From an archaeon (lineage in GTDB: Archaea; Iainarchaeota; Iainarchaeia; Iainarchaeales; Iainarchaeaceae): a DNA stretch of 64,000 nt. The position numbers and the translations under genes are program-made. Under the pieces are notes generated by a model. That model was not told where the DNA came from. It did not search any database and worked only from the letters and a program-made list of their open reading frames with translations. Below, in pieces: positions 1 to 55,273 of the stretch; the first letter of the stretch is position 1; each line of letters begins with the position of its first letter. The stretch lies in NCBI GenBank assembly GCA_038046625.1, contig JBBSVV010000003.1, positions 1 through 64,000 of the forward strand, given 5' to 3'.

Positions 1-836
1 TTTTTCACTTCCGGCAACAGTTTCGGCTGTTGGGTGCGAGTACTATCTTCGCCTTTTGGGCTCGATAGTGAGTTCGGCTGTTGGGTGCGAGAACCCATAC
101 TTGTTTCACTCGTATGGCTTTGGCTCGCCCCTGTCGGGCTCGCGTCCTTCTGCCTTTCTTGGCCTGTTTCACTTGGTTTCTGTTCCTGCTGTTTTTCTGC
201 GCCCGCTTTCTGCGGCCCGGCTTTTTTAGCTTCATCTTTTGCAATCGTTTCTCCCCCGGTGCGCGCAACCGGCGGGGTTGGCTGTGCAGCTTTTTGTGGT
301 GCCTGGGCCGTGTTCCCGGTTTTCACTTGTTTCTCCTGCGCCTGCTTTTCCTGCCTCTGTTTTTTTGCCGTGTTTCTTTTCGCCATTTCTTCGTTTGATT
401 TTTCTTCCTTTAAGCGCAATTGTTCCTTGAAAACTTTTTCAACCGCCCTGGCTTTCTCCATCAAAAATTTTTCGCCCTTTCCGCTGACTTTTCTCCCGAC
501 TTTTTCCTTTTTCAAAAGGCCCTCTTTTTCGAGCATTTGGAGGCACAGCCTGATTATTTTTCCGGAGGCCTTGACCTTGTGCTCAGGCCTGACTTTCATG
601 TTTTTTCTTCCGCCGTAGTAACTGCGGAGCCCGCCTGTTCCCACGTTGCCCTGCTTGTATGTCTGGTAGAGTATGCTTGCCGCCCTCATGTAGAACCAGT
701 CTCTCCTTTGCGGAGCCCGTTCGCGGTGTGCACCGGTCTTTACGTATGCCACGAATTCGGGTTCCCTGATTTTTGTCTTGAGGTCCTTTGCGGCCTCTTC
801 AACCAGCATTCCTGCCGGCACGTCAAAAATGCCCAT
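1..836 (-). CDS. rps19e: 30S ribosomal protein S19e with long low-complexity C-terminal tail (runs off window edge)
   Basis: Manual translation from ATG at 836: MGIFDVPAGMLVEEAAKDL..VKTGAHRERAPQRRDWFYMRAASIL..LRSYYGGRK..ASGKIIRLCLQMLEKEGLL; no stop seen to position 3, which explains its absence from the ORF track. Confidence 0.92.
   Translation of the reverse strand, partial: MGIFDVPAGMLVEEAAKDLKTKIREPEFVAYVKTGAHRERAPQRRDWFYMRAASILYQTYKQGNVGTGGLRSYYGGRKNMKVRPEHKVKASGKIIRLCLQMLEKEGLLKKEKVGRKVSGKGEKFLMEKARAVEKVFKEQLRLKEEKSNEEMAKRNTAKKQRQEKQAQEKQVKTGNTAQAPQKAAQPTPPVARTGGETIAKDEAKKAGPQKAGAEKQQEQKPSETGQERQKDASPTGASQSHTSETSMGSRTQQPNSLSSPKGEDSTRTQQPKLLPEVK
15..90 (+). repeat. Dispersed hairpin repeat family A, copy inside rps19e tail
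   Basis: caacag-tttcgg-ctgttg-ggtgcga, then actatc-ttcgccttttgggctc-gatagt, then a second ttcggctgttgggtgcga. Confidence 0.85.
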
Positions 837-1070
837 TTTTCAAAACCTTCTTTTGCTCCTTTCGGAGTTCTGCCTTGCTCAAATCCCTTTTCAGGGATGA
901 GCCCTAAAAGCAGTTACACTTAATTCGAGTGTGAAACCTTTAAAAACGTTGTTTTTAGTGGTCATCCATTTATGTCTCGTTTAGTATTGCGTCTGAATGA
1001 GGCAATGGATGTGTTCGTTTCTTCCTCTCCGACATTGGTTACCCCGGCCACAGTGTTGCTCATATGCGTA

Positions 1071-2495
1071 TTATGCGCAGTCAGGTGTGGCGAACGATGC
1101 GTGCTTTTCCTGCGCGCATACTTGCCTTATTTCCGCGACGGAGAGTGCCCTGCTGTAAATGCGGATGTTGTCCATCAGCCCGTTGTACCTGTATAGAGTT
1201 GAAACTGTCGGTGGTGGACTGAGAACGTATCCGGCACCTATCAGTAAAGGCCAGGCGTTCGAAATGTTGGTCGCCTTTGTTGCGTTAACATCCCTCCATG
1301 CAACCCTCTCGGTTCCGTCAACATAAAAGTATCCCCACGGTGCCGGGCTGCGCGTAATGGTGATTGCTATGTTATGCCAAACTCCATTCCTCCATGCTTC
1401 CACATCTGCCGGATTTCCATCATCCGGTCCAGGGGATGCGACACGCAGGAAGTCTGGGGTAGCTGGGGCAACGCTGCCGTCGGCGCTTGTAAGGTAAAAC
1501 GTGCCCCTATAAAGGCCGTATCCCGGCGAACTGTTGTGGTACGCTTTTGCAATGGTTGACTGCTGCAGCGTGCTTGTTTTTACCCACATGGTTATTGTAA
1601 AGTCGCTTGTCCCGAAGTCAAGGTCCGGGCTGTCCGGGACGCTTATGTATTGGGTTCCATTCAGGCTCAAAACTTGGCCTCTTTGTGGGTCGTTTGGGAA
1701 TGTCGGGGAGCCGACAAGCGTGCCGGTGTGCCCGTTTCCAGAAGCGTCATTGGCGGTTCCGTTGAATGGCCAGTAAGCTACCAGGCCCACAGTTAGCGGG
1801 TCGGGGTTTACAGTTATTGTTCTGATGTTTGGCGAGCACGTGGCGTTTTGCGTTCCATTTGTGAACGGCGGCAGTGTCGCTGTGTAAGTTCCCGCTGCCG
1901 TGTAAGTGCATGTCCCCATGCATGTCGTCGCGTTGCACGAAACGCCGGTAGCCGTTGTTGCTGGCGTAGTTCCGCAGTTGATTGTCGGCGGGTTAGGATT
2001 CGGCGAAAAGTTTTGGTGCGTTATGGTTAGTGTGGAGGTTGCCGAGCCGCCGGATATTGTTATCGGGCTTGTTGCCGAGCTGAATGAACATGAAGCCGTT
2101 GGCTGTGGTGCTCCGCAATCTGCCGGGCACGTTGCCTGGGTTTCAGTGCCGTTGCATATTCCGTCGCCGCATGTTGGAGGCGCAGGCGCTCCACCGCCCG
2201 TGTATCCACAGTCTGGTATTGTTCCTTGGCATGTGTATGTGGTGCCGCTTATTGTGACTTGGATTGGCGGGCTTCCTGCCGGTGTCGGGCTGGCGCAGTT
2301 TCCTGATATTCCCGCGAGTCTTGCTTGCTGCCCTTTTTGTTTGCAGAACGCGGCTACCGCGCTGTTGCTTGTTTGTTGGTTTCCGCTCTGCCCAATTCCG
2401 AGTATAAGTGTTATTACTATTACCGCTACCAGCACCGCGCCGCCTATGAGCAGTAAGTATTCGAGCGAACCCTGCGCTTTTTTATTTTGCATCAT
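1071..2495 (-). CDS. Class III signal peptide (pilin) protein with Cys-rich motif and C-terminal LamG-like jellyroll domain
   Basis: KKAQ-GSLEYLLLIGG signal; CGDGICNGTETQATCPADC; GLVAYWPFNGTANDASGNGH..DFTITMWVK..WHNIAIT..YVDG..GLMDNIRIYSRALS. Confidence 0.88.
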   Translation of the reverse strand: MMQNKKAQGSLEYLLLIGGAVLVAVIVITLILGIGQSGNQQTSNSAVAAFCKQKGQQARLAGISGNCASPTPAGSPPIQVTISGTTYTCQGTIPDCGYTGGGAPAPPTCGDGICNGTETQATCPADCGAPQPTASCSFSSATSPITISGGSATSTLTITHQNFSPNPNPPTINCGTTPATTATGVSCNATTCMGTCTYTAAGTYTATLPPFTNGTQNATCSPNIRTITVNPDPLTVGLVAYWPFNGTANDASGNGHTGTLVGSPTFPNDPQRGQVLSLNGTQYISVPDSPDLDFGTSDFTITMWVKTSTLQQSTIAKAYHNSSPGYGLYRGTFYLTSADGSVAPATPDFLRVASPGPDDGNPADVEAWRNGVWHNIAITITRSPAPWGYFYVDGTERVAWRDVNATKATNISNAWPLLIGAGYVLSPPPTVSTLYRYNGLMDNIRIYSRALSVAEIRQVCAQEKHASFATPDCA

Positions 2496-2518
2496 AAATT
2501 AGATTGTTTTTCGCATAT

Positions 2519-2821
2519 TTATTGCTTGGGTTTGTCGCCTGTTTTGCGCTCGAAGCCGCATTCAATGCATTTCACAATTGTGAGTGTTCCGATTGTTTTT
2601 GTTTCCGAGTTTGTTCCTTTTTTTAGGTATGCGCCGCATTTTTTGCAGAATTTTTTCTTCATTTCCCTGCCCATGCGCACGCGGTGTTTTTTAGCTAGTT
2701 CACGGGCGATGTGCACATATCTTTTGCTGCGCTCCGGATTTTTTTCCAGTTCCTGCTCCGCGAGTTCGAAGAGCCTGTGGATCCTTTCTTCCGCGATCTG
2801 GGTTGCTTTGGTGTGCTTCAT
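2519..2821 (-). CDS. rnp4: Ribonuclease P protein component 4 (Rpp21)
   Basis: IAEERIHRLF..RYVHIAREL..FCKKC..CIECG; second Met chosen as start. Confidence 0.92.
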   Translation of the reverse strand: MKHTKATQIAEERIHRLFELAEQELEKNPERSKRYVHIARELAKKHRVRMGREMKKKFCKKCGAYLKKGTNSETKTIGTLTIVKCIECGFERKTGDKPKQ

Positions 2822-2848
2822 GCAAGTAGTTTTGCCGTGCAACTTTAT

Positions 2849-3571
2849 TTAATGGTATTTTGGTTTGTTCGCTGTTTTTTCGCGGCTCCCGCCTTTTGCC
2901 GCATTTATTATTTCCTTGAGAACCGTGTATGTCCGTTCCGCGTCCTTCTCGTCAACCAGAAAGTGAAGGTCCGGAGGAGTGGTGACTATTTCTATGCTGA
3001 TTCCTTTTTTCGCGATTATTTGCGATAGTTCCGCAATGACTCCGTATGCGGCGTAAGACTCAAGGGGCATCCTGAATGTTATGAGTGCGCGGTCTGTCAG
3101 CGCCAAAAGCTTTTCGTCCTCGAGTTCATCCAAAAGTTTTTGCACGCGGTTTTTCTTTGCTATCAGCATCACCTGCTCCGCGCCCTGTATGGCGATTCTC
3201 ATTTCTCCTATTCTCCAGTCGCTTTCCCTAAGAAGTTCCTCGATTTTTGAGGCCACTTTCGGGGTTTTTCTGAAATGCACGTAAGCCATGTTGTCCTGCA
3301 GTGTCAGTTCCGAATTTGCGAAGGAATCAAGGTATGTTGCGTTAATTTCCGAGGTGTCGAGTTCATCCGCGTAGCGCTTGATTGAAACGATTACCGATTC
3401 CTCGTTTAGCTTTTTGCCAAGCTTGGTGCCAAGAGTTGGAATGAGTTTTCTCGCGAGTGCCGAGTAGTTGATTATGCCGTCCCCTAATGAGGTTTTGACG
3501 TGCGGCATTGCGTTTATTTCCTGCCTCACTATTTCCGCCAAAGAGCTTGTTGATTCCTTATCTCTGCCCAT
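2849..3571 (-). CDS. Conserved archaeal protein, N-terminal HTH-like region and ACT-like C-terminus
   Basis: GIINYSALARKL..VSIKRY; YGVIAELSQIIAKKGISIEIV. Confidence 0.7.
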   Translation of the reverse strand: MGRDKESTSSLAEIVRQEINAMPHVKTSLGDGIINYSALARKLIPTLGTKLGKKLNEESVIVSIKRYADELDTSEINATYLDSFANSELTLQDNMAYVHFRKTPKVASKIEELLRESDWRIGEMRIAIQGAEQVMLIAKKNRVQKLLDELEDEKLLALTDRALITFRMPLESYAAYGVIAELSQIIAKKGISIEIVTTPPDLHFLVDEKDAERTYTVLKEIINAAKGGSREKTANKPKYH

Positions 3572-4110
3572 ATAACTAATTTTTTAACATAAAATATTAA
3601 AATATATCATTTTGTGTTAATTTTGCCTAAAATTTAACAGTTCAGCACCTATTTTGAAATAATTCGGCTTTTTGCCGTATTTTTAGGCTTTTAATTTTTG
3701 CTGGTTTCGCTTTTCCCGTTTAAACGCTTAGATTGTTAGAAAAGCCCTGTTTTGCCGGTTTTCTGGTCGCCAGCCTTTTTAATTTCCGGGGCGAAGTTGC
3801 TTGTAGTGGTTTGTTTATGAAAGCAAAACGATTCCCAAGGGGAATTCGGCCGAAGGGGTTTGCCCCCGGCGAGATTGTAATTAACGTAGGCGGTACGCCT
3901 TATAGGGTTGATCCTCGGCAACTGAGAAGGAGGTGAATTTGCGTGGATGGCAGCGAGCAGGTCAATGTAGTGGTTGACGGCGCCATGGCAACGATGCTGG
4001 GGTGATTTTTTCCATTGCCGGGGCTCTCGAACCTTTGGTTGAAATCAGCCCGCCTCTTGAAATTTGCGGGGGATGCAACCGCGAATGGTTATTCTGCGAA
4101 CCAAGCAGAA

Positions 4111-4183
4111 TGCAGCTGCCGGGATTCGAACCCGGGCCAACAGCTTGGAAGGCTGTGATGCAAAACCGCTACACTACAGCTGC
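4111..4183 (-). tRNA. tRNA-Gly(TCC)
   Basis: GCAGCTG/CAGCTGC acceptor, ACAGC-CTTCCAA-GCTGT anticodon arm, CCGGG-TTCGAAT-CCCGG T arm. Confidence 0.93.
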
Positions 4184-5065
4184 TTTAAGGAAATCAGCAT
4201 GGGTCGGAACTATTCCCGTTTCCTTAAAAATCCTGTATTTTATTGAATGCTTAATATTGCTGGGTTTAATTAGTTTAAAAAAAGTATCCACGTGAGCCTG
4301 ATCGTAGATATAAACGCTTTTTCCGGATAAGCTTGCCTTAAATCCCAGTGAAACCAATGCGCACTTTACCTCATAGAGGAAATTTGGCGAACAGCTGATA
4401 AATTCGACTACCGCACTATTTTTTCTTCTTCTATGAAAACTTCCGTCAGTGTCGAATAAGCCCCTCAAATATGCTGCAAGAAGATTTCTGTCGTTGAGGA
4501 TTTTCCTTTGGATAAACATCCTGTTTTTTCTGTTTCCTTTCGGAAACCCAAACTCTTCAGAAAGATATGAAACAAGCCGCTTTGAATAAACCTGGCAGCG
4601 TATTGCCCCGTTTTTAACGATAAAAGTCGGCTCCAGTCCGAATAGTTTTTCAAACTTTTTTCCAATGCTGTTTTTCACATACGCATTATCTACAATTGCT
4701 CCGCATGTAATTGATACCCTGTAATTTTTTTCGTAAATATTTCCGTCGCCTGACATGGCGCCAAGGAATTCCGCAAGCTCTTTGCCTAGTTTCGGTTTTC
4801 GGATTTCTTTTTCCCCAAACTGGTCAAGTTCTATTAATTGCAATTTTTCAATTTCTTTTAAATCGAATCCTGTTTCTTTGCAGAGTGTTTTCAAATTGCT
4901 TAAAGATATCCTGCAATTTTCTTTTAAGTAGTGGAAAATCATTCTTTTTGTAACGCCGATTATATCTGCAATTTTTTGCCAGCCAAGCCCGGAGTGCTCT
5001 TTTATCTTTCTGAGAACTGCCGCCTGATGCCAAAGGCCAGTCTGCACAAATAGTTCTTTTGCCAT
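4169..5065 (-). CDS. Free-standing double-motif LAGLIDADG endonuclease with N-terminal HTH; stop codon inside tRNA-Gly
   Basis: LAEFLGAMSGDGNI and YLRGLFDTDGSF; HTH-like GWQKIADIIGVTKRMIFHY; visibly AT-richer than flanks. Confidence 0.88.
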   Translation of the reverse strand: MAKELFVQTGLWHQAAVLRKIKEHSGLGWQKIADIIGVTKRMIFHYLKENCRISLSNLKTLCKETGFDLKEIEKLQLIELDQFGEKEIRKPKLGKELAEFLGAMSGDGNIYEKNYRVSITCGAIVDNAYVKNSIGKKFEKLFGLEPTFIVKNGAIRCQVYSKRLVSYLSEEFGFPKGNRKNRMFIQRKILNDRNLLAAYLRGLFDTDGSFHRRRKNSAVVEFISCSPNFLYEVKCALVSLGFKASLSGKSVYIYDQAHVDTFFKLIKPSNIKHSIKYRIFKETGIVPTHADFLKAAVV

Positions 5066-5162
5066 TAAAATTTTGCGATTTTTGAATTTTTAAAGCATTC
5101 GGGGCCTTAGTGCCGGTGCCAAACAGTTATCGATTAAAACGAACACCATACTTTATTTATTC

Positions 5163-5813
5163 ATGGGGAAAGGCATGTTCGTTGTTTTTGACGGCGTTGA
5201 CGGCGCGGGAAAGGGAACCGCAGTGAAAGGCGCTAAGAAGTTCCTTCTCTCTAAGGGGATTCCTGAATCTTGGATCGTCCATACTGCGGAGCCCACGAAC
5301 GGATTTTACGGGAAAAAGGTTCGCGAGTTGCTTGTTTCTTCCCCGAAGCCTGAATTGAATGCGAAGCAGTTCCTGGATTTGTACGTTGCGGACAGGAAGG
5401 AGCATCTTGAAAAAATTATTGAGCCGGCTTTGCGTGAGGGAAAAATCGTTTTGTGCGACCGCTTCAAGCACAGCACTTTCGTTTACCAGCATTTGCAGGG
5501 GATTCCGCTTGAAAAAATCCGCGAACTGCATGAGGGAATGGCCACTCCTGATCTGGTTTTCATTCTGGACCTTCCGGTTGAGGTTGCGATGAAGAGGATA
5601 CTGCGCAGAAAAAAGCTGGACACTTTCGAGCGGGCTGCTTTCATGGAAAAAGTGCGTGCAGGCTTCCTCAAGATGAAAGAAATTTTTCCGCGTGAGGACA
5701 TAGTGTTCATTGACGCGTCGAAAAGCATTGGTGAAGTGAGGGCAAAAATAGGTTCGGTTCTTTGGAATAAAGTCAGGGAAAATGCGACCACCGGGAATCG
5801 AACCCGGCCCTGA
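5163..5813 (+). CDS. tmk: Thymidylate kinase
   Basis: FDGVDGAGKGT P-loop, ADR..H, VLCDRF, PDLVFILD. Confidence 0.95.
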   Translation: MGKGMFVVFDGVDGAGKGTAVKGAKKFLLSKGIPESWIVHTAEPTNGFYGKKVRELLVSSPKPELNAKQFLDLYVADRKEHLEKIIEPALREGKIVLCDRFKHSTFVYQHLQGIPLEKIRELHEGMATPDLVFILDLPVEVAMKRILRRKKLDTFERAAFMEKVRAGFLKMKEIFPREDIVFIDASKSIGEVRAKIGSVLWNKVRENATTGNRTRP

Positions 5814-5853
5814 GCCTTGGCAAGGCCCAATCATACCAATAGACTATGGTCGC
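5783..5853 (-). tRNA. tRNA-Gly(GCC)
   Basis: GCGACCA/TGGTCGC acceptor, GGGCC-TTGCCAA-GGCTC, CCGGG-TTCGATT-CCCGG. Confidence 0.93.
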
Positions 5854-5857
5854 ACAA

Positions 5858-5908
5858 CCTTTTTTCTTTTCCCGGAGAAAAGAAAAAAGCTTGGCCAAAA
5901 AAGAAAAG
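5858..5908 (+). repeat. Dispersed T-tract/A-tract repeat family B
   Basis: cc + T-rich tract, gaaaagaaaaaa, ttggcc, aaaaaagaaaag; same layout at 7743, 7975, 27011, 36553. Confidence 0.75.
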
Positions 5909-5977
5909 CCATTCTTTGCCAAAAGAAAAGAACCCTAAGCCTAACAGATTTTTCCGTGGCGAAATCTTTTAAATTGC

Positions 5978-7699
5978 TCATTTCAACTGGCTAAGTATAA
6001 CTGCTATTAAAGCCCCAAAAACCAGTATTCCAAGGCCTAAAACCCCTAGCAGGATATTTTGGCCGGTGAAAAGCTCCTGGATTTGCCCCTGCAAAGCCGG
6101 CTGTTGCGATTCGGGCTGCACCTCTTTTGCCTCGAGGGGCTGTTCCTGCACGGGCTTTTCCGGCACGATTATTTCGAATTCCCTTTCGACGCCGGCATTC
6201 ACATTTACAGTCACTTTTCCGGGCTGAATGTTCTCTATTTTTTGCGTGAAGAGCTTTTGTGCTGATGCCTCAATGTTCACATTGCTCTTTGTTTCCTTTC
6301 CCAAGTAAATTACAGTTATTGTGGCTTCCCCTTCTGCATTGCCGTTGTTTTTAAGCAGAACCCTGAGTTCCAAATTGCTTCCATCAATGAACGGGCTCAC
6401 GTCCTTGACGCTTATGTCGGCCGCTTTCTGTTCCGCGCCTTTCTTCTTCACGAGCTTTATTGTGCCGCTCATGTTTCCGTCCGGAAGAAGCAGGTACATT
6501 CCGTATGTGTAGTAGCCGTTCTTTGCCTCCTTGTCAGGCGCCTTCACTTTCCACGAAACCTCCTTTGTTTCCCGTGCTTTGAGGAAAATTATTTTGTTTT
6601 TTTGGTCCGCGCGGAAATCCTCGTGCAGCGCAAGCTCCACCGGAAGTATCGCGTCCTCTCCCGAAACATTGGTTAATTGTGCCTTGATTTCAAAGCTTTC
6701 AAGCGGTTCAACTTCGGAGGGCTTTTCGAGCTTCGCGTCAAGCAGGCGCGTGAAGAACTCAACCGAATTTATTTTTATTTTCGGCTCCCCGAGCTGTGTC
6801 TGCACCTGAATCGCTTTCGCGCTTTTCGTGCTCAGGATTAAGTCCGCGGCTTTGTTCGCGTCGATTGTTTTTGCTATGGTGAAGTGCGCCGCGTCAAGGT
6901 ATCCGGCCTCGCCATAAGTGCTGTCAACCCCTATCCAGCCGGTTCCCGGCAAATACGCCTCGAGCCAGCCATGAAGCCCAAAGCGCGTGCCGTCAAAGCT
7001 TATCCCCTTCACGTATCTTGCGGGAATTCCTTTTGCGCGCAAAAATGCGGCGGTAAGGTTCGCGAACTCATCGCAGACGCCCGCGCGCGAATTGTATGTT
7101 TGTTTCGCGCTGTATGTGGCGCTGTAGTAGTTCTCGAAATCGTACGCAATGTTCTGGTTCACCCACTCGGTTATTCCGCGTATGGTTTCTATTTCAGAGT
7201 CGCTCGTGAATTCGAGCCGCGCCTTGCTCATTATTTCAGGGTCGCTTGATTCAATGTAATCGCTCGGCTTCTTATACTCCGGGAATTCCTTTATCGGGTT
7301 GGTTAGGTTGTAGTCTTCCCCAAGGCCGATTGCAGCGCTCCTCCTGACCCGCGCCTCCCTAATGATTTTGAATTGAGGTGCTTCCGCATACTCATGCAAA
7401 TCATTTATTTTGTACACCGCGTACTGCACCCCGTTTTTTTCTCCCCGTATCGGGAGAATTTTGTTCCCGCCTATTTCCATGTGCTCGTTCAGTTCAAGGA
7501 GCTCCTGGCCCTGTTCCTGCTGCATTGTGATGAACATTATTTCCATTTCGTCGCCTCTCGTTATTGTTCCGGAAAACGAGCCAGTTGCCTCTGAGGTTAT
7601 GGTTACGTCCATGCTTTTCACGGTCGAGGGCCTGAATTCCTGCGCCGAAGCTGTTGAAAGCGCAAGAATAAACAGCAGCGCAAAAGCAATTTTTTTCAT
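5978..7699 (-). CDS. Secreted, C-terminally anchored transglutaminase-like protein
   Basis: Signal peptide; GVCDEFA..GIPARYVKG..HGWLEAY..WIGVDST triad; C-terminal TM helix. Confidence 0.9.
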   Translation of the reverse strand: MKKIAFALLFILALSTASAQEFRPSTVKSMDVTITSEATGSFSGTITRGDEMEIMFITMQQEQGQELLELNEHMEIGGNKILPIRGEKNGVQYAVYKINDLHEYAEAPQFKIIREARVRRSAAIGLGEDYNLTNPIKEFPEYKKPSDYIESSDPEIMSKARLEFTSDSEIETIRGITEWVNQNIAYDFENYYSATYSAKQTYNSRAGVCDEFANLTAAFLRAKGIPARYVKGISFDGTRFGLHGWLEAYLPGTGWIGVDSTYGEAGYLDAAHFTIAKTIDANKAADLILSTKSAKAIQVQTQLGEPKIKINSVEFFTRLLDAKLEKPSEVEPLESFEIKAQLTNVSGEDAILPVELALHEDFRADQKNKIIFLKARETKEVSWKVKAPDKEAKNGYYTYGMYLLLPDGNMSGTIKLVKKKGAEQKAADISVKDVSPFIDGSNLELRVLLKNNGNAEGEATITVIYLGKETKSNVNIEASAQKLFTQKIENIQPGKVTVNVNAGVEREFEIIVPEKPVQEQPLEAKEVQPESQQPALQGQIQELFTGQNILLGVLGLGILVFGALIAVILSQLK

Positions 7700-7742
7700 G
7701 CACAGAAATAGTGTTTCTTTATTTTAATTGCTTGTGCTGCAG

Positions 7743-7796
7743 CCTTTTTTTTCTCTTTGGAAGAGAAAAGAAAACTTTGGCGAAAGAAAAGAGAAA
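7743..7796 (+). repeat. Repeat family B copy
   Basis: cc + T-rich tract, gagaaaagaaaa, ttggcg, aaagaaaagag. Confidence 0.7.
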
Positions 7797-7899
7797 CCGG
7801 TTTTGACACTTTTCTTTGGTACAGCTTTTCAATGGCCTTTTCCTGCACTTTTCTTTTTAGCACGGATTTTTCTTTTCGTGCAACGAAAAGAAAAAAGTG

Positions 7900-7972
7900 T
7901 GGGCCCGGCAGGAATCGAACCTGCGATTTCTTCGATGTAAACGAAGCGTCCTAACCGCTAGACCACGAGCCC
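7900..7972 (-). tRNA. tRNA-Val(TAC)
   Basis: GGGCTCG/CGGGCCC acceptor, CTTCG-TTTACAT-CGAAG, GCAGG-TTCGATT-CCTGC. Confidence 0.93.
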
Positions 7973-7974
7973 AA

Positions 7975-8025
7975 CCTTTTTTCTTTTCTTGCGAAAAGAA
8001 AAAACGTTGACGAAAAAAGAAAAGG
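7975..8025 (+). repeat. Repeat family B copy, directly upstream of tRNA-Val
   Basis: cc + T-rich tract-ttgc-gaaaagaaaaaa-cgttgacg-aaaaaagaaaagg. Confidence 0.75.
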
Positions 8026-8121
8026 CAAGTCCTGTTGCTGGAACAGCGTAGAATGAAGTGCCCTGATAGGGTTAAAAAAGTTGGCTAAAAAGGGAAAAAA
8101 GGCTTCTGAAGCAGAAGCCGT

Positions 8122-8412
8122 TTACTTTGTTTCTATTATTATTCCGCCGACCATTCCCGCGAATACATTGTACAGGAATGCGCTTAGTGCGCCGCCTATG
8201 AATCCTAATACTCCGTAAATTATCGGAAGTATTATTATTGACAGTACTCCGCCAAAGAGGCCTCCCGTAATTCCTGCCCCGTTTCCGCCTGCTATTGCCC
8301 CGAGCACAAGCGATAATACCGTTAAGAGTGCCCCGAATATCAGGCCGATTACTGCGTATGTCACTCCCATGATTTTTGCCATGGACATGACGCCTATTTT
8401 CCTGATTTCCAA
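8122..8412 (-). CDS. Small membrane protein (DUF3566-like)
   Basis: IRKIGVMSMAKI..two TM segments..AFLYNVFAGMVGGIII; TTG start after gaggtgat. Confidence 0.75.
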   Translation of the reverse strand: MEIRKIGVMSMAKIMGVTYAVIGLIFGALLTVLSLVLGAIAGGNGAGITGGLFGGVLSIIILPIIYGVLGFIGGALSAFLYNVFAGMVGGIIIETK

Positions 8413-8521
8413 AAGAAATCACCTCGCACACACATTGCGTTGCTCCGTATAAATTACTTTCATTTTTTGGCGCTTTACGGAAGCCTTATATATGATTTAA
8501 TTGTATTAATTGTTGATTTCC

Positions 8522-8962
8522 ATGCGCAAAATAATGTATTTCAGGGTTGCTGGGCGCGACGTGCACCTGCCAAAGCTCATAGGCGCATTCATTCTTTTTG
8601 CTTCATTGCTCATGTTTGTGCAGTCTTCCGCGCAAATGTTTGATTCCTGGGACAACCTCAAGCATTATGATTCATGCATACTGAAAATCAATTCGAACGC
8701 TTCGCTTGATGGCCAGCGCGCCGAATTCAATTCGTGCTCCGACACGCTTTACAGGGCAACCGGCATTGTTGTGCGTGAGGATGTGCCAAAGCTTACTGCG
8801 CGCCAGTTCTGGAGCGGCTTATTGGGTTCCATAGCTAGCCTCTTGTTCTGGCTTGCGATACTGTTTGTGGGCTACGTGCTTTACAGGAGCGGCGACCTCG
8901 TCATTCCGATTGAGGAAAGAATAGTCACCGAACCTGAGCACCAAAGAAAAAGAAGGAAATAA
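8522..8962 (+). CDS. Hypothetical membrane protein
   Basis: ORF with two hydrophobic helices filling the gap. Confidence 0.7.
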   Translation: MRKIMYFRVAGRDVHLPKLIGAFILFASLLMFVQSSAQMFDSWDNLKHYDSCILKINSNASLDGQRAEFNSCSDTLYRATGIVVREDVPKLTARQFWSGLLGSIASLLFWLAILFVGYVLYRSGDLVIPIEERIVTEPEHQRKRRK

Positions 8963-8968
8963 GGACAG

Positions 8969-10345
8969 TTACAATGTAACTGCCTTGACTTTTCCGTTTT
9001 CCTCTATTTTTCCCTTTCTTACTCCTACAACGTATTTTGCGCCGGCTTTTTCGGCCGCGTCGAAGAGCCTCTTGGTTATTACTCCGTCAAAGATTATTGA
9101 GTGGGCGTTCTTTATTTTCGCCATTTCCTCGACAAGGTTTTTTACCTCGACTTCCTTGACTTGTTTGTTCTTGTCGTCGAGAATTCTTGCCTTCATTGTT
9201 CCCTTGAGCTCGTCAAGTATGGGCCTGTAAACCGACTCTTCGTTCTGTGAGAGCGCTGGCCTTGCGGGGAATTCCTGTATAGGTTCCCTGGGCGCAATTG
9301 TTTCGCGCGGCACGAATTCCCTTCTTTCGCGCCTGTCAGGCCTCATGCCGTTGTCGCGGTTGCCCCACCTGCTTGTTGGCCGTGGGTCCCTGTCTCCGTG
9401 ATCGCGCATCCCTCCCCCGAAGCTTCTTTGGCCGAAGCTTCTTTCCCTGAAGCCGCGTTCGCGGAACGGCCTTTCCTGGAATGTCCTTTCGCGGAATTCC
9501 CCTCCTCCGGGAAATTTCCTTTCCGAGAGCTCTTCCTCCGCGGGAACCCTTTTTTTGAGGCTCTGGAGAATTTCTTTTCTCGTGAGTTCCTCGACTTCTT
9601 TTCCATCGGGCGCTTTTGCAATGTATGCTATGCGCGCGAGCTGTGCGAGTTTCCTCGCGTTCAGGATCCCTCCTCGGTCGCCGTCAACGAATGCGGTTAT
9701 GCTTTTCTTTTTTCCGAGTTCGCTTATTGTGCTTGAGATGTTGGAGCCGTTCATTCCTATTACGTTCTTTATCTGGTTCCTCAGCATGTTCAAAACATCT
9801 GCGCGGCCTTCAACAACAATTATTTCTTCGCTTATTTCTATGTCGGGGCCCGCGGGCAGTTTGTCCGGGCCGTACTCGGTTATTTCGGCTGCGCGGACGT
9901 TTTCGCGTATCTCGTCCCTCAGGGTTTGTGTTTCGGGGCTTGATTTGTCCATCATTTTTTTGAGCAGTTCTTTTGCGCGGTCCTTTATTTCCTGCCTTTT
10001 CGAGGTTCTCGTATCATCAATGTCATCTATCTCGAACTTTGCCTGGCAGGGCCCAACCTTGTCCACGCTTTCAATGCTTGCCGCGAGCAGGCTCGTTTCC
10101 GCCATGTCCATTGAGCTCGGCACCAAAACCTCGCCCTTTGTTCTTCCCATTGCGGTTGTGTGGTTTATTTCTATGCGCCCGATTTTTCCGTTCTTCTGGA
10201 GCTCCTTCAAATCCATTTCGTCTCCCAAGAGGCCTTCGCTTTGCCCGAAAATCGCGCCAATAATATCCGGCTTGTCAACTATGCCGTCTATTTCGAATTT
10301 CATTTTTATCATGTATTTGACCGTGTTTATGTAGGTCTTCGCCAT
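8969..10345 (-). CDS. dnaG: Archaeal DnaG (TOPRIM; exosome-associated primase-like protein)
   Basis: GIVDKPDIIGAIFGQSEGLLG, IIVVEGRADV, FVDGDRGG, APDGKEVEEL; start MAKTY. Confidence 0.95.
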   Translation of the reverse strand: MAKTYINTVKYMIKMKFEIDGIVDKPDIIGAIFGQSEGLLGDEMDLKELQKNGKIGRIEINHTTAMGRTKGEVLVPSSMDMAETSLLAASIESVDKVGPCQAKFEIDDIDDTRTSKRQEIKDRAKELLKKMMDKSSPETQTLRDEIRENVRAAEITEYGPDKLPAGPDIEISEEIIVVEGRADVLNMLRNQIKNVIGMNGSNISSTISELGKKKSITAFVDGDRGGILNARKLAQLARIAYIAKAPDGKEVEELTRKEILQSLKKRVPAEEELSERKFPGGGEFRERTFQERPFRERGFRERSFGQRSFGGGMRDHGDRDPRPTSRWGNRDNGMRPDRRERREFVPRETIAPREPIQEFPARPALSQNEESVYRPILDELKGTMKARILDDKNKQVKEVEVKNLVEEMAKIKNAHSIIFDGVITKRLFDAAEKAGAKYVVGVRKGKIEENGKVKAVTL

Positions 10346-10394
10346 TTTCCAATCAACTCCTTTTCCATGGCTATTTTGTTTTTTTTCGCGAGAA

Positions 10395-10709
10395 TTAGTT
10401 TTTCGGAAGCTTTTCTCTTTTGAGGAACTTGAGAACAAGGTTTTTTTCCGCTCCTTTGAGGAGCAGTTTTTTCCTTCGGCTTTTTTCGCCGCTTTTAATT
10501 TCAACTCCGCATCCAAGCCTTTTTTTGAGCTCTTTCACGAGCCCTTTGTTGGCTTGGCCTTTGAGTGCCTTTTCCTTAACCTTGATTCTCAATGCGTTCG
10601 TCCAGGGGTTAAAGCCCAGAATTGCGAACTGTTTTGAATTCGGAATCACTTCCAATTCAATTTCAACATCATTGTTTTCTGCAACTGATTTAAGGTTCGT
10701 CAAAACCAA
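10395..10709 (-). CDS. DUF167/UPF0235 family protein
   Basis: VIPNSK..LRIKVKEKALKGQANKGLV..IKSGEKSRRK. Confidence 0.85.
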   Translation of the reverse strand: MVLTNLKSVAENNDVEIELEVIPNSKQFAILGFNPWTNALRIKVKEKALKGQANKGLVKELKKRLGCGVEIKSGEKSRRKKLLLKGAEKNLVLKFLKREKLPKN

Positions 10710-10887
10710 TTAAACCTCAAATTCCCCAAAAGGACTCGGGCTTCCAAAGCCGCCAATCCTCATAGCAAAACAATAAACTATATACATAAAGCTCGGTTAT
10801 GGGTATATTAATGTTAGGGTTCCGTTTGCCCCTTGGTGCTTTGGCACGGATTATATATTCCTCCCAGCCCCTTTTTATTGTACACAC

Positions 10888-11292
10888 ATGGCTCACTACA
10901 ACAAGGGCGCTTCGGCGGAGCGCGAGCTCATAAAGCTTCTCTGGAATCTTGGTTTCGTGGCTGCGCGGGTCGCGGGTTCCGGAAAGAACGCCTTGCCCAT
11001 GCCTGATTTAATCGCCTTGGGGAAAGGAAAGAGCTTCATTTTTGAGTGCAAGGCATGGCGCGGGAACTATTTGAACATTTCCGCGGAGCAGATGGCCGAG
11101 CTCCAAAAATGGGGCGAGGTTTCCGGTGCACAGGCTTTCATCGGCTGGAAGTACCCGAACAAGGGCTGGTTTTTCGTGAAGCCGGAGCACTTCAGGAAGA
11201 GCAAGCATTACAACATTTCGATTGCGACAACAATGAAGGTCGGCATTCCATTGGAAGTTGTTGTGGGCGAGCAGCGGCAATTAAAGGTTTAA
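10888..11292 (+). CDS. hjc: Holliday junction resolvase Hjc
   Basis: KGASAEREL..GFVAARVAGSG..PDLIA..FECK. Confidence 0.95.
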   Translation: MAHYNKGASAERELIKLLWNLGFVAARVAGSGKNALPMPDLIALGKGKSFIFECKAWRGNYLNISAEQMAELQKWGEVSGAQAFIGWKYPNKGWFFVKPEHFRKSKHYNISIATTMKVGIPLEVVVGEQRQLKV

Positions 11293-11317
11293 AAAGCCGT
11301 CATTGCTTATTTCTTTT

Positions 11318-11443
11318 ATGATTGAGCTTGCCCTGGTTTTGCAGGAGCTTGAGAAGCTTTATGCGAAGGAGAAGAGCCTGCGCAAAAAGAATTTCCTTGA
11401 AAGCGCGATAACGAACATTAAGGAGTATGAGAAACTTCTCTGA
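11318..11443 (+). CDS. Small hypothetical helical protein (41 aa)
   Basis: MIELALVLQELEKLYAKEKSLRKKEFLESAITNIKEYEKLL*, fills intergenic gap. Confidence 0.5.
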   Translation: MIELALVLQELEKLYAKEKSLRKKNFLESAITNIKEYEKLL

Positions 11444-11462
11444 TTTTTAGGAATTTCCGCGC

Positions 11463-12116
11463 TTAAATCACGGTTGCCACGAACAACATCGTCACTGAAA
11501 TCAGCCCCATGATGACCATGAGTATGAGGTTGTCTATTGTGAGTGCCTTGTCGAAGTTCTGGTAAAAGAAGTATAGTACTCCCAGGCCGAACACCAGTCC
11601 AAGTATCCACATTGCGTTGCTGATGAGCCCGTTTCTTCCGCCGACTCCTTTCATGTGTGCCTCGTCCATGTCCACCTGCACCTGCCTTACTGCCTCGCCG
11701 AGCTCGTTCAGTTTCACCTTCACCCGTTCGTTGAGGTCATTCACTTTCGCTATGTTGTCGCCGATTTGTTCCTGAAAGGTTTTGCTTTGCCCCGTAATGT
11801 CCCGCTCGTATTGCTTCAAATCGCTTATCACTGCCTTTGTGAGTTCTGTTCTGGATTCATGTGCGCTTGTTACGGCTTCCTCCTCAATGAATTTTTTGAG
11901 CGTGGGTTTTTGCGTTTCCAATTCGGCCTGCACGATTTTTTTTATTTCGCCGCGCAGCAATGCAAAAGTGTCCGCCTGTCCGAGAAGCAAAAGCCTTTTT
12001 GCCTTGTCCTGTGAAACCCCGAGGTCTTTCAGGGTTTGCACTATTTTTTCTTCGCTTTCGCCTTCGCGAACCATTTTCTCTATTATCTCTATTATGCTTG
12101 TGTCCGTTTTCGCCAT
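11463..12116 (-). CDS. Hypothetical coiled-coil protein with two C-terminal TM helices
   Basis: Start MAKTDT after gaggtg SD; helical body and hydrophobic end. Confidence 0.75.
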   Translation of the reverse strand: MAKTDTSIIEIIEKMVREGESEEKIVQTLKDLGVSQDKAKRLLLLGQADTFALLRGEIKKIVQAELETQKPTLKKFIEEEAVTSAHESRTELTKAVISDLKQYERDITGQSKTFQEQIGDNIAKVNDLNERVKVKLNELGEAVRQVQVDMDEAHMKGVGGRNGLISNAMWILGLVFGLGVLYFFYQNFDKALTIDNLILMVIMGLISVTMLFVATVI

Positions 12117-27302: not shown

Positions 27303-27416
27303 ATGGTCGAAATTCCGATTCCAAACAAAGAAGAAATAGATTTAGCAGTAGAGGCTGAAGAGTTGACGGACAGGGAACTGTGGATTCTTAGCAAGTTTGG
27401 AGGTGATTTTGAATGA
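27303..27416 (+). CDS. Small acidic ORF (37 aa) coupled to the endonuclease
   Basis: SD ggaggtgg; MVEIPIPNKEEIDLAVEAEELTDRELWILSKFGGDFE*; ATGA overlap with next gene. Confidence 0.65.
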   Translation: MVEIPIPNKEEIDLAVEAEELTDRELWILSKFGGDFE

Positions 27417-28252
27417 ATCTCGCATCGGCAATCAGCCCTCTAAAATTGTATAATAATGCTTCAGAAGTACCTGCCATTATGGGCTTTGATTTTTCGTCAG
27501 ATTTGGCCGAGGTTTGCGGCATCCATGCGGGCGACGGATACCTTCGTAATGACGGAAAAAGAAGGGAGCTAGACATCAGCGGCGGCATTGATGAAAAGGA
27601 ATATTATGATTCGCATGTCGTGCCTCTTTTTGAACGAGTTTTTGGAATAAATATTACTCCAAAATTTTTTCCAAAACGTCATACTTACGGTTTTGTAATT
27701 CGCGACAGAAACATTGTTGAGTTTATGCACTCGCTTGGGTTTCCTTATGGGGCAAAAACTTTCACAGTTTCAGTTCCTGAATTTGTTTCCAATTCCAAAA
27801 ATTTGGATATACTATATAGTTTCATTAGGGGCGCTTTTGACACAGATGGTTGCCTAGCTTTTCAAAAGAAAGTGGGAAGCGGCTATAAAAGTGAAGTAAA
27901 GAGGAAGCACTCCTTTCCTGTAGTTCAGATAAGTATCTGCTCTAAACCATTTTGTGATGGGCTGTGTTCACTTTTCAGGAAAACCGGTTTTAACTGCAAA
28001 GTTGTCATGCAGAAACCTACTTATGACTATCAACACGTGAAATATGCCTTGTATTTGAGGGGTTATTCTAATCTTAAAAGTTGGATGCGCAACATTGGGT
28101 TCAAAAATACTTCAAAACTATCGCGCTATGAGGTTTGGGAGAAATTCGGTTTTTGTCCTACTAACATTTCTTTTGAGCAGAGAAAACAAATATTAAATAA
28201 TGAACTTGACCCCAATTCCTTCTATAAGCATGGGCTCGTCGCTAACGGATAA
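27413..28252 (+). CDS. Free-standing double-motif LAGLIDADG endonuclease; stop codon inside tRNA-Arg
   Basis: LAEVCGIHAGDGYL and FIRGAFDTDGCL; SD ggaggtgat; AT-rich. Confidence 0.9.
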   Translation: MNLASAISPLKLYNNASEVPAIMGFDFSSDLAEVCGIHAGDGYLRNDGKRRELDISGGIDEKEYYDSHVVPLFERVFGINITPKFFPKRHTYGFVIRDRNIVEFMHSLGFPYGAKTFTVSVPEFVSNSKNLDILYSFIRGAFDTDGCLAFQKKVGSGYKSEVKRKHSFPVVQISICSKPFCDGLCSLFRKTGFNCKVVMQKPTYDYQHVKYALYLRGYSNLKSWMRNIGFKNTSKLSRYEVWEKFGFCPTNISFEQRKQILNNELDPNSFYKHGLVANG

Positions 28253-28302
28253 GCACCCCGCCTTCGAAGCGGGCGATGAGGGTTCGAATCCCTCCGAGCC
28301 CG
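28232..28302 (+). tRNA. tRNA-Arg(TCG), atypical D-arm
   Basis: GGGCTCG/CGAGCCC acceptor, CCCGC-CTTCGAA-GCGGG, GAGGG-TTCGAAT-CCCTC. Confidence 0.85.
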
Positions 28303-28480
28303 CTGCACTTTCACGCAGAATCCTTGATTCTGCTGAAACCTGCACTAAAAAGAAAGAGTGCCGGAAAAAGAAAAGACCCCTGTTTCTGGCTCGGCAAGCC
28401 GTGCTTGGCCGGTTTCAATGTGGCCAGGGCTCGCTTTCTTTTAGGCAAGGAATTAATACTCGCAAGTAGTTGTATTTTTG

Positions 28481-54900: not shown

Positions 54901-55220
54901 TTTATTTCCGCTATTTTCTGCTTGGCCAGCATCACTTCTTTGGCGGCTTTCTTCTCTTCATCTTCCTTGTCCTCGCTTTGCGCCTTTTCAGGTTCTTCGC
55001 TGCGCATCTGCTCAAGTATAAGGTTTTTTTTGCCCGGCAATGGCTTCGGTTCCGTGTGCCATGGCTTTTTCCCCTGGGCTTGTTGAATCTGTGCGGGATT
55101 TTTTTTTGCGGGCTCGGGCTTCACGGCTTTTTTTTGCGCGGCGTCTTCCGGCTTTCCGGGTTGTTTTGCGTCTTTTTTTGCCTTTGCCTTTTCAAATAGC
55201 GCGTCGAGATAATCTGGCAT
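51981..55220 (-). CDS. Pilus assembly ATPase (VirB11/TadA family) containing an intein
   Basis: LDARLPDGSRVN, GGTGSGKTT, MRPDRIIVGEIR, TGHDG|SLGTVHAN. Confidence 0.93.
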   Translation of the reverse strand: MPDYLDALFEKAKAKKDAKQPGKPEDAAQKKAVKPEPAKKNPAQIQQAQGKKPWHTEPKPLPGKKNLILEQMRSEEPEKAQSEDKEDEEKKAAKEVMLAKQKIAEIKSTLPPQENINAPQNPESVPEEQKSTAERELETSEKKLIDSYGNAKIYELPGQPLLYYWIPVPRPVGAEKTIINTIKEAATRVISITPYKIRDPEQRKNVYYQKVLEILRDSPELNIPKTRFDFYANTVIREMIGYGIIDDLIHDDKLEEIMVIAPNRPVYIFHRKYGMMITNIEFYNDNEIQDLVNRIARQIGRRVDISSPLLDARLPDGSRVNATIPPASVQGSTLTIRKFREDPYTIIDLIKNKTIEAETAAFLWACTDGLGTKPANILISGGTGSGKTTTLNVLATFIPETERIISIEDTAELNLPLKHWIRMEARPPGLEGTGEVTLDILTKNSLRMRPDRIIVGEIRHDEAFSLFTAFNTGHDGCLTGEAKIALTSGIREIGQFTEEQLQKNGSRKEGEWEVCTVGDEHINSVDGKGKVNRQKIVQARRRPFTGNVYHIKLASGSELTCTGNHPFYTLADNIQQARADTLKEGQNIATPRKLLREENAKETESEYWSGLLHGDGNITYYKRQRKKNGKQYLCNEGSINLYTEEETIIPKFINYMKENLDGTHVKIVNPRPQKQCYEAHISGFKKTAKIMEMLDIPAGSRQKAKMSNSHYTNSLRGFVAGFFDAEGHVDANNNAIVISCANEHYIDFFRYALLTEGITSRKYESRAHNSRWYRLYIYGIDQVEKFYKTYPVKFPEKIRKIEELLGRGKESNTNTDTIECNGTIIKLLKTAKKEKGYSNSEIARMAGLTQGAISFYKRRERTPSRRAVGALAKAFESAGIESSKLKLLAESDIFWDKVIAIHSYPYNGFVYDLTVSEERQTGRNPHNFVAQGIIVGNSLGTVHANSAQETIVRVTNPPMNVPQVMLSGLDIIVVQHRLHDRKMGTIRRITEIAQVTGALEGKPKTEAVYLRDPVTDSLKRTKAQINYAQKLQELAGMSKKDFDDEVKDRAAYLEKLVKENRRSMKEISEAVKQYSMKKK
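52410..53792 (-). mobile_element. Intein with LAGLIDADG and HTH domains (461 aa)
   Basis: HDG|CLTGEA..CTGNHPF..GLLHGDG..FVAGFFDAEG..VYDLTV..HNFVAQGIIVGN|S. Confidence 0.93.
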
Positions 55221-55273
55221 TCGGAATCCTACTAAAGGACAGTTTTCTTTTATATAAATATTACTTTATCGGG

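Follow-up and report, generated by a model that had tools for sequence, protein, structure and literature searches.

The window analyzed here is a stretch of 64,000 nucleotides (nt) of contig JBBSVV010000003.1 from a groundwater DPANN archaeon, which is of the Iainarchaeum/Diapherotrites kind according to the names of its nearest hits. Its genome (G000) is 84.6% complete, with 57 contigs that amount to 986 kb. On the reverse strand of the window, a free-standing gene for a LAGLIDADG homing-endonuclease-like protein of 298 residues extends from an ATG start to a TAG stop in the list of open reading frames (ORFs; positions 4169–5065). This gene, the tRNA gene into which it runs, and the family to which it belongs are the subject of this study. 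The tRNA gene, tRNA-Gly(TCC) (4111–4183, reverse strand), was identified by both ARAGORN and Rfam (RF00005, 64.2 bits), and it is the sole tRNA-Gly(TCC) that ARAGORN detected in the genome. On the other side of the ORF lies the thymidylate kinase gene tmk (5163–5813, forward strand; Pfam Thymidylate_kin, 132 bits), which is divergent from tRNA-Gly(TCC).

The ORF and the tRNA gene share 15 nt (4169–4183, reverse strand). The 3′ end of the ORF, GCA GCT GTA GTG TAG, is identical with nucleotides 1–15 of the tRNA, so that the codons for A-A-V-V are followed by a stop codon formed by T13-A14-G15. An initial annotation of this locus had described a helix-turn-helix (HTH)-LAGLIDADG frame that borrows its last four codons and its stop from tRNA-Gly(TCC), and the ORF list, ARAGORN, and Rfam all agree with the borrowed codons and stop. 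An identical 15-nt overlap, with the stop on T13-A14-G15, was found in the orthologs of three other genomes (loci L008/L070, L071, and L075), and the ortholog in L072 overlaps its tRNA by 11 nt. In an alignment of 35 homologs (29–65% identical), (A/S)(A/V)VV is the C-terminal ending of many proteins.

The position of the ORF is not that of an intron-borne or intein-borne gene. Except for the shared 15 nt, it lies entirely upstream of nucleotide 1 of the tRNA, it has its own ATG, and it has no flanking extein. A location inside a group I or other intron was rejected because an Rfam search of positions 1–12000 with E values up to 0.1 matched tRNAs alone and no intron family. A duplicated fragment of the tRNA 5′ end upstream of the ORF, which would be expected if an element had split the tRNA, was not present in 5066–5162.

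The ORF product matched the Pfam family LAGLIDADG_3 (PF14528) with 41.6 bits (residues 196–266), above the cut-off of 22.5. In the translation, the first LAGLIDADG motif, LAEFLGAMSGDG (4742–4777, reverse strand), includes the catalytic residue Asp107, and the second, YLRGLFDTDG (4442–4471, reverse strand), includes Asp207. The initial annotation had proposed a structure prediction and a check of both catalytic Asp residues; both are present, and both are unchanged in the 35 homologs. The residues that are invariant around the first motif are E99, G102, G106, D107, and G108, and those around the second motif are G202, D205, T206, D207, and G208.

The AlphaFold2 model of the protein has a predicted local distance difference test (pLDDT) score of 93.2 and a predicted template modeling (pTM) score of 0.80. 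Two alpha-beta-beta-alpha-beta-beta-alpha domains form a saddle, which is located C-terminal to a helical domain. The first of the two consists of helices 95–107, 127–142, and 162–172 and strands 108–111, 116–122, 147–151, and 154–160, and the second consists of helices 193–207, 227–239, and 256–265 and strands 208–212, 218–223, 244–247, and 250–253. The N-terminal domain (residues 13–65; 4871–5029, reverse strand) is a four-helix HTH-like domain (helices 13–25, 29–36, 40–47, and 55–65), and it gave only weak profile matches: HTH_19 in Pfam, with 19.5 bits below a cut-off of 30.2 (E value of 0.001), and the XRE-type protein 3op9 in the PDB (E value of 0.005). A match to PF01381 is precomputed for some of the homologs.

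In a profile search of the PDB, the top matches of the protein came from archaeal V-ATPase inteins, whose endonuclease domains (7qsu and 7qss) gave E values of about 6e-14; PI-PfuI, I-DmoI, and I-Tsp061I followed. A Foldseek search with the model retrieved the TliVMA intein endonuclease, PI-PfuI, I-Tsp061I, and I-DmoI, with a TM-score of 0.74 for I-Tsp061I and of 0.65–0.69 for I-DmoI and a probability of 1.00 for I-Tsp061I, I-DmoI, and PI-PfuI. Structures of WhiA (8dy9, 8dy7, and 3hyi) were found lower among the Foldseek matches, and the Pfam family LAGLIDADG_WhiA scored 17.8 bits, below its cut-off of 23.2. According to the model and the motifs, the ORF product is a monomeric double-motif LAGLIDADG endonuclease with an N-terminal HTH-like domain, and its activity is predicted.

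The divergent pair of tmk and tRNA-Gly(TCC) is kept in many of 40 relatives of the host, often with tRNA-Gly(GCC) beyond tmk, and the spacer between the tRNA 5′ end and the tmk start was compared among them. It measures 979 nt in the window's genome and in G020, the only two of the syntenic genomes examined that have the full gene in the spacer; the two genes are 65% identical and have the same 15-nt overlap. Spacers of 178, 186, and 144 nt in G007, G004, and G008, respectively, contain remnants equivalent to the last 36–55 codons, which have no start codon and differ in their deletion end points. Seven genomes (G010, G012, G011, G038, G003, G018, and G021) have empty spacers of 64–98 nt with two TATA-like boxes and no similarity to the gene, and no similarity was detected in the spacers of G005 (132 nt) and G006 (151 nt). 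In total, a close ortholog was found in one of the 40 relatives and remnants were found in three, and the other syntenic loci are empty or otherwise occupied. All three states of the spacer (full gene, remnant, and empty) occur within genus g2, and genus g4 includes remnants and empty sites.

Two spacers are occupied by other ORFs. In G001, which belongs to the same genus as the host and has a 92% identical tmk, the spacer is 449 nt long and shows no trace of the endonuclease gene; an unrelated ORF of 118 residues without a family assignment (L153:1671–2027, forward strand) is in its place. The spacer of about 1.3 kb in G015 holds another LAGLIDADG-like ORF in the opposite orientation, directed away from the tRNA (L158:208–1356, reverse strand; 382 residues), with the motifs FFDGYC and FLDEGS and a Pfam E value of 5e-4, below the cut-off.

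The gene was also found at the same site beside tmk in the distant hosts of L071 and L072. Its identity to the window's copy is 56% and 51% in these hosts, respectively, compared with 36% and 29% for the adjacent tmk, the one flanking gene that was compared. The presence of full, decayed, and empty alleles at a single site, together with the higher conservation of the gene than of tmk in distant hosts, is the pattern expected of a homing element, and sporadic occurrence at a homologous site with empty and decayed alleles is in accordance with a homing cycle. The synteny of tmk and tRNA-Gly in relatives had been suggested as a check on the proposal that the gene is an acquired element, and the full, remnant, and empty states support that proposal. 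DNA contigs from four sequencing runs, searched at 80% likeness, yielded short low-depth pieces and matches to foreign tRNAs, and none of them bridged an empty site. A look-up of sequencing runs for positions 3600–5900 returned no RNA run with this DNA.

If an element occupies the spacer, the tRNA promoter has to be considered. A TATA-like octamer, TTTTTAAG (4223–4230, reverse strand), is located at −47 to −40 from the tRNA 5′ end, within the codons for I-F-K-E, and it is a putative tRNA promoter. Boxes of this type were defined as octamers within one mismatch of TTTAWAWA that start at −55 to −22. They were found in 64 of 80 co-oriented archaeal pairs of family ORF and tRNA, with a sharp peak at −40 to −31, compared with 4 of 20 convergent pairs, where no peak was observed. 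Among the gene-free tRNAs of this genome, 12 of 28 have such a box, with the same peak as the co-oriented pairs. At the empty sites, a box such as GATTTTAAAAC is present about 36–46 nt upstream of the tRNA, and the position of TTTTTAAG corresponds both to this native box and to the TATA peak that precedes tRNAs in the family and in the genome. ORFs that stop early are followed by a perfect TTTATAAA or TTTATATA box directly past the stop and before the tRNA, and in a tighter space the box is spelled by codons such as those for N-F-I-N-K or E-F-K-N-F. The three start-less remnants (G007, G004, and G008) retain the box-bearing stretch. From these sequence patterns, the tRNA probably keeps an independent promoter inside the ORF end. 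A tRNA promoter within the ORF had been one of the suggestions of the initial annotation, and the box at −47 to −40 and the counts of 64 of 80 and 4 of 20 lend it indirect support.

Taken as a whole, the gene is likely to be a free-standing, single-gene selfish LAGLIDADG element with an embedded tRNA promoter, situated in the promoter region of tmk and tRNA-Gly(TCC). The states of the spacer in relatives show that the element was inserted here, in the short stretch with the divergent promoters of tmk and the sole tRNA-Gly(TCC) gene, and the enzyme may cut empty tRNA-flank sites and spread via repair-mediated copying. Because the element occupies the position of the tRNA promoter, the last roughly 16 codons of the ORF could double as this promoter, and transcription of the tRNA would be directed by the TATA-like box within the coding sequence. 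Having no stop of its own, the ORF reads on to T13-A14-G15 of the tRNA. The gene itself may be driven by a second TATA-like octamer, TTTAAAAA (5087–5094, reverse strand), which lies at −29 to −22 from the ATG and is a putative promoter, and its transcript would run into the tRNA for the stop. The position of this box suggests that the mRNA is leaderless or nearly so. Since the stop lies within the tRNA, an mRNA that contains it must include 15 nt or more of the tRNA. Cleavage by RNase P at position +1 of the tRNA would remove the stop and leave a stop-less message, which may keep the expression of the enzyme low.

The TATA-like box can be read differently. The gene may be selfish while the tRNA has no promoter of its own; read-through from the endonuclease promoter would then transcribe the tRNA, RNase P would release it from the 3′ end of the mRNA, and the box would arise as a side effect of the F-K codons. 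The ORF and the tRNA are co-oriented, overlap by 15 nt, and have no terminator between them, and the RNase P protein subunit Rpr2 is encoded nearby (2519–2842). Moreover, TTTTTAAG has one mismatch to the consensus and sits at −47, upstream of the modal −40 to −31, and I-F-K-E-T-G is a conserved protein motif. However, the TATA peak is equally sharp in the 80 co-oriented pairs and in the gene-free tRNAs and is missing in the convergent pairs, and where an ORF stops early the perfect box stands between its stop and the tRNA, outside the coding sequence. The three remnants, which have lost the promoter of the gene, keep the stretch before a sole tRNA-Gly(TCC), and it would be costly for a sole essential tRNA to depend on a selfish gene with weak expression. 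Transcription of the tRNA by read-through is unlikely in view of these observations.

The association with tRNAs is not restricted to one locus. ARAGORN, with introns allowed, detected 34 tRNAs in the genome. Used alone, ARAGORN undercounts: it missed an intron-bearing tRNA beside the family copy on contig C10, as well as all of the multi-intron tRNA-Gly genes described below. Six of the 34 have a LAGLIDADG ORF on the same strand that ends between −9 and +47 nt from their own 5′ end, namely Gly-TCC (+15), Gly-CCC (−7), Arg-TCG (+21), Leu-TAG (+11), and the intron-bearing Glu-CTC (+47) and Ala (−9). Five of these six ORFs score above the Pfam cut-off, and the sixth was recognized by a family profile (E value of 5e-33). 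Among the 850 frames of at least 200 residues that were counted, a tRNA is located at the 3′ end of 6 of 8 free-standing family ORFs versus 6 of 837 non-family ORFs (Fisher p = 5e-11), even though a tRNA on either strand was allowed in the non-family comparison. Ten further family matches in this 1-Mb genome are LAGLIDADG_3 domains inside ORFs of 650–1311 residues, and they are presumably intein-borne endonucleases. These long ORFs are located at 51981–55265 of the window (reverse strand), at C3:69032–72967, and on eight other contigs.

The ORF preceding tRNA-Arg(TCG) is the second free-standing LAGLIDADG ORF in the window (27413–28252, forward strand; 279 residues). It has no N-terminal HTH, carries the motifs GIHAGDGYL and IRGAFDTDGCL, and overlaps tRNA-Arg(TCG) (28232–28303, forward strand) by 21 nt. 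It is the ORF that was recognized by the family profile, and it gave no Pfam match at E values up to 0.01. Members of the same clade in three further genomes are likewise followed by tRNA-Arg(TCG).

The family was surveyed at 149 loci, of which 69 came from the window's genome and the 40 relatives and 80 were the best 80 of at least 507 relatives from one-genome-per-species contigs. Free-standing family ORFs, defined as ORFs of up to 470 residues with a stop, number 145 in these loci, with four duplicates that were reached by two routes. According to ARAGORN and Rfam, 90 of the 145 have a co-oriented tRNA at their 3′ end (within 100 nt of the stop, and most overlap it), 22 have a convergent tRNA, and 33 have none. 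Inspection by eye, confirmed by a simple acceptor/D-arm heuristic, revealed a co-oriented multi-intron tRNA-Gly(TCC) 5–35 nt past the stop in 8 of these 33, and two further co-oriented cases were added, L119 by the same heuristic and L056 by a tRNA-like Rfam hit. At least 122 of the 145 ORFs therefore adjoin a tRNA by their 3′ end, either co-oriented or convergent, and the ORF points toward the tRNA with its 3′ end in all arrangements. By record names, the archaeal hosts are Iainarchaeum and Woese-, Pace-, Nano-, and Nanohaloarchaeota. The family also occurs in bacteria of the candidate phyla radiation (CPR), namely Paceibacterota, Saccharibacteria, and Uhr-, Yonath-, and Lloydbacteria, where the partner is tRNA-Ser, although the bin assignments of such genomes may be wrong.

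Some of the partner tRNAs have unusual structures. The tRNA-Gly(TCC) of L078, L082, L083, L088, L092, L094, L102, and L107 contains two or three introns. In Woese- and Nanoarchaeota, the introns of multi-intron tRNA-Gly(TCC) are placed in the D-loop, after the anticodon, and in the T-loop. These genes were missed by ARAGORN with introns allowed and by Rfam, and the related tRNAs of L098 and L114 were called Lys-TTT. In L100, an apparent tRNA 3′ end, comprising a T-loop and the 3′ strands of the T-stem and the acceptor stem, follows right after the LAGLIDADG stop (L100:2856–2880), and a matching 5′ acceptor word was not found within the 4.8-kb locus. This piece could be one half of a split tRNA, a remnant, or a sign that the ORF is inside a very long intron.

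A tree of the 141 distinct proteins was calculated with FastTree. It requires 49 changes of tRNA isotype, compared with 70–79 (mean of 75) in 200 label shuffles, and on these sequence grounds the clades of the family track tRNA identity, despite the mislabeling of many intron-bearing tRNAs by ARAGORN. The clade of the window protein has 17 rows, of which ARAGORN assigns 14 to tRNA-Gly and two to other tRNAs (PheAAA and AlaGGC); no tRNA was found for the remaining one. Within its tRNA-Gly rows, TCC is co-oriented, CCC is mostly co-oriented, and GCC is always convergent. Other clean groups are associated with Arg-TCG, Val-GAC, Ala-GGC, His-GTG, Ser-CGA, Leu-CAA, Thr-GGT (convergent), and Met-CAT (convergent). 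The number of codons from the conserved C-terminal G-x-V-P motif to the edge of the tRNA varies from about 6 to 17, and a fixed spacing was not found.

The juxtaposition might be fortuitous, that is, an ordinary gene in a compact genome may have a frame that runs into a neighboring tRNA by accident. The genome is indeed compact, and other genes overlap tRNAs, as the 3′ end of tmk does with tRNA-Gly(GCC) on the opposite strand. However, the proportions of 6 of 8 and 6 of 837 in this genome and of at least 122 of 145 across many phyla are hardly those of an accident. The overlap is more than chance because it recurs in orthologs and because of this tRNA adjacency, and coincidence is extremely improbable as an explanation.

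WhiA provides the model for another interpretation. It is a bacterial transcription factor that arose from a LAGLIDADG endonuclease and an HTH domain; its HTH is C-terminal, and its catalytic residues are lost. By analogy, the window protein may not be a mobile nuclease but a domesticated WhiA-like DNA-binding factor that regulates or protects the neighboring tRNA gene or promoter, with one paralog for each tRNA gene. The two proteins are alike in the two-domain LAGLIDADG scaffold combined with an HTH, and WhiA is among the fold matches. The gene is intact in both G000 and G020, where its divergence (65% identity) equals that of tmk (64%), the clades track tRNA identity across phyla, and six paralogs are retained in a 1-Mb genome. 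In contrast to WhiA, the window protein keeps both catalytic Asp residues, which are invariant in the 35 homologs, has its HTH at the N-terminus, and stays below the LAGLIDADG_WhiA cut-off. WhiA is vertically conserved, whereas the gene studied here is sporadic. In most relatives, including a genome of the same genus, it is absent from the locus or reduced to a start-less remnant, and therefore it is dispensable. Furthermore, 22 of the 145 copies are convergent at a tRNA 3′ end, where there is no promoter to regulate. The initial annotation had pointed to vertical conservation across the lineage with lost catalytic residues as the mark of a domesticated regulator, and neither was observed. We regard domestication as quite improbable.

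Several observations nevertheless weigh against the selfish element. If tRNA sequence were all that the enzyme recognized, the tRNA gene of the host would be a target as well. The copies of G000 and G020 (65% identity) are about as conserved as tmk (64%) and the ACT-domain gene (58%) of these genomes; this pair fits extended vertical inheritance with purifying selection, a pattern not expected of a purely selfish gene that is no longer being transferred. The higher conservation of the gene than of its neighbor in L071 and L072 was measured against a single gene. The remnants of 144–186 nt exceed the needs of a promoter. In the window's genome, two free-standing copies lie away from any detected tRNA (C5:70099–70857 and C49:216–1361, both on the reverse strand); a convergent gene is located downstream of the former and ORF-like sequence downstream of the latter. 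In the whole family, no tRNA was detected next to the 3′ end for up to 23 of the 145 members. In four of these, less than 200 nt of sequence follows the stop, and another, L124_1983, represents the N-terminal half of an ORF split by a frameshift, the second half of which adjoins a tRNA. In addition, many forks of the tree are unsupported, and the ARAGORN isotype labels of intron-bearing tRNAs are often wrong, since neighbors labeled Lys-TTT proved to be tRNA-Gly(TCC) by inspection.

The reading as a selfish element with an embedded tRNA promoter may be extended to the family as a whole. In this extension, a cross-domain radiation of LAGLIDADG enzymes would form a tRNA-end homing system, in which each lineage reads the acceptor-stem end of one tRNA gene and persists because its final codons supply the tRNA with a substitute promoter. 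Whether approached from the tRNA 5′ end in the sense direction or from the 3′ end in the antisense direction, the 5′ strand of the acceptor stem would read alike. Owing to this symmetry, one enzyme lineage could become established on either side of a tRNA gene, always with its own 3′ end toward the tRNA. A pattern of settlement at both ends was found for tRNA-Arg(CCT) and for tRNA-Gly, where TCC and CCC are co-oriented and GCC is convergent. The odd tRNA introns of DPANN archaea, including those of the multi-intron tRNA-Gly(TCC), could be scars of the enzymes or shields against them. This broader scheme is speculative, and we consider it doubtful in its entirety.

The closest relatives of the window protein among characterized enzymes are the archaeal intron endonucleases I-DmoI and I-Tsp061I and the intein endonucleases TliVMA, PhoVMA, and PI-PfuI. 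They share the double-motif single-chain fold with it, have both acidic active-site residues, and give the best profile and structure matches. Like homing elements in general, the gene shows a patchy distribution and decayed copies. It differs from the intron and intein enzymes in that it stands alone in a tRNA 5′ flank, has its own start and TATA-like box, encodes an N-terminal HTH-like domain, and has no stop of its own. The use of the tRNA 5′ flank as a recurrent and apparently tolerated niche of a selfish element has an analogy, and no more than an analogy, in eukaryotes. The retrotransposons Ty3 of yeast and TRE5-A of Dictyostelium insert just upstream of tRNA genes, but they rely on an integrase or reverse transcriptase and are guided by the RNA polymerase III machinery.

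The nearest functional precedent for a tRNA-linked free-standing homing gene is SegB of phage T4. SegB is a free-standing GIY-YIG homing endonuclease encoded in the T4 tRNA gene cluster, and it is reported to be site-specific and to be needed for the region of the tRNA genes to be inherited preferentially (PMC2330249). Both SegB and the window gene are free-standing endonuclease genes beside tRNA genes. However, SegB is a single GIY-YIG gene in one cluster of a phage, whereas the window gene is chromosomal and belongs to a large LAGLIDADG family in which each tRNA species has its own subclade; Pfam finds only LAGLIDADG_3 in the ORF product. An overlap between ORF and tRNA or an embedded tRNA promoter is not mentioned for SegB in the abstract of that article (PMC2330249). 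A survey from 2018 placed all 39 archaeal group I introns in rRNA genes (PMC6125680), and the passages considered from another article mention CPR homing endonucleases only in rRNA introns (PMC10714607). A search of full-text literature, with subscription journals and supplements outside its scope, returned no LAGLIDADG genes adjoining chromosomal tRNA genes in DPANN archaea or CPR bacteria.

The class of the enzyme is known, and it is the tRNA-flank niche of a large DPANN/CPR clade for which no description was found within that literature. Free-standing homing endonucleases are well known in phages, as are LAGLIDADG enzymes in archaeal rRNA introns and inteins. A single overlap between a gene and a tRNA is a modest curiosity, and a family-wide, tRNA-specific niche that crosses domains is of more interest. 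If the enzymes are active, they would constitute a natural library of long-site nucleases, each for a different conserved tRNA-gene end, and a prokaryotic parallel to the tRNA-targeted retrotransposons. Under the same condition, they would also provide an example of a coding sequence that doubles as an archaeal promoter, with F-K codons as the TATA box and a stop borrowed from the tRNA. Because the ORFs overlap tRNAs and multi-intron tRNAs are missed by ARAGORN and Rfam, both genes are prone to mis-calling in metagenome-assembled genomes.

Other features of the neighborhood were also considered. A 10-bp inverted repeat with a 25-nt spacer (tttaaggaaa at 4184–4193 and tttccttaaa at 4219–4228) abuts the tRNA 5′ end inside the ORF, as had been pointed out before. 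It is one of three inverted repeats in 3500–5900 (8-nt seed, arms up to 80 nt apart), and its arms coincide with the codons for F-K-E and F-L-K. The repeat is missing in G020, G007, G004, L071, and L072, and it is reduced to 8 bp in G008. A role as a conserved hairpin or operator was rejected, given its absence from five of seven related sequences and a folding z-score of −1.27. The repeat is thus real, but it carries no weight as a clue. The initial annotation was right that the ORF is richer in AT than its flanks, with a GC content of 0.35–0.40 against about 0.44–0.53. It had also noted a second tRNA-Gly upstream of the ORF. This gene, tRNA-Gly(GCC) (5782–5854, reverse strand; ARAGORN), does exist 717 nt from the ORF start; it belongs to the host synteny and is also found in genomes without the endonuclease gene, so its presence says little about the element.

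On the other side of tRNA-Gly(TCC), the 540 nt up to the ACT-domain gene (3572–4110) contain no convincing ORF, and the GC content is 0.52–0.53 in 3750–4110. This region was rejected as a known RNA, with no credible Rfam match at E values up to 10 and a folding z-score of −0.53.

The 3′ end of tmk (forward strand) overlaps tRNA-Gly(GCC) (reverse strand) by 32 nt (5782–5813), and the tail of its product, NATTGNRTRP, is encoded by the antisense strand of the tRNA. The same overlap was found in G001. A hairpin at 5855–5893 abuts tRNA-Gly(GCC) and is part of an element of about 60 nt that is located upstream of eight tRNAs (Gly-GCC, Val-TAC, Ala-GGC, Arg-CCG, Arg-GCG, Ser-TGA, Cys-GCA, and Glu-TTC). 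Two of these eight copies lie in the window, the one at 5855–5893 and another at 7973–8035, and the remaining six precede other tRNAs of the genome. Its hairpin has T-rich and A-rich arms of about 13–17 nt, for example CTTTTTTCTTTTC and GAAAAGAAAAAAG, and it ends 2–4 nt before the tRNA.

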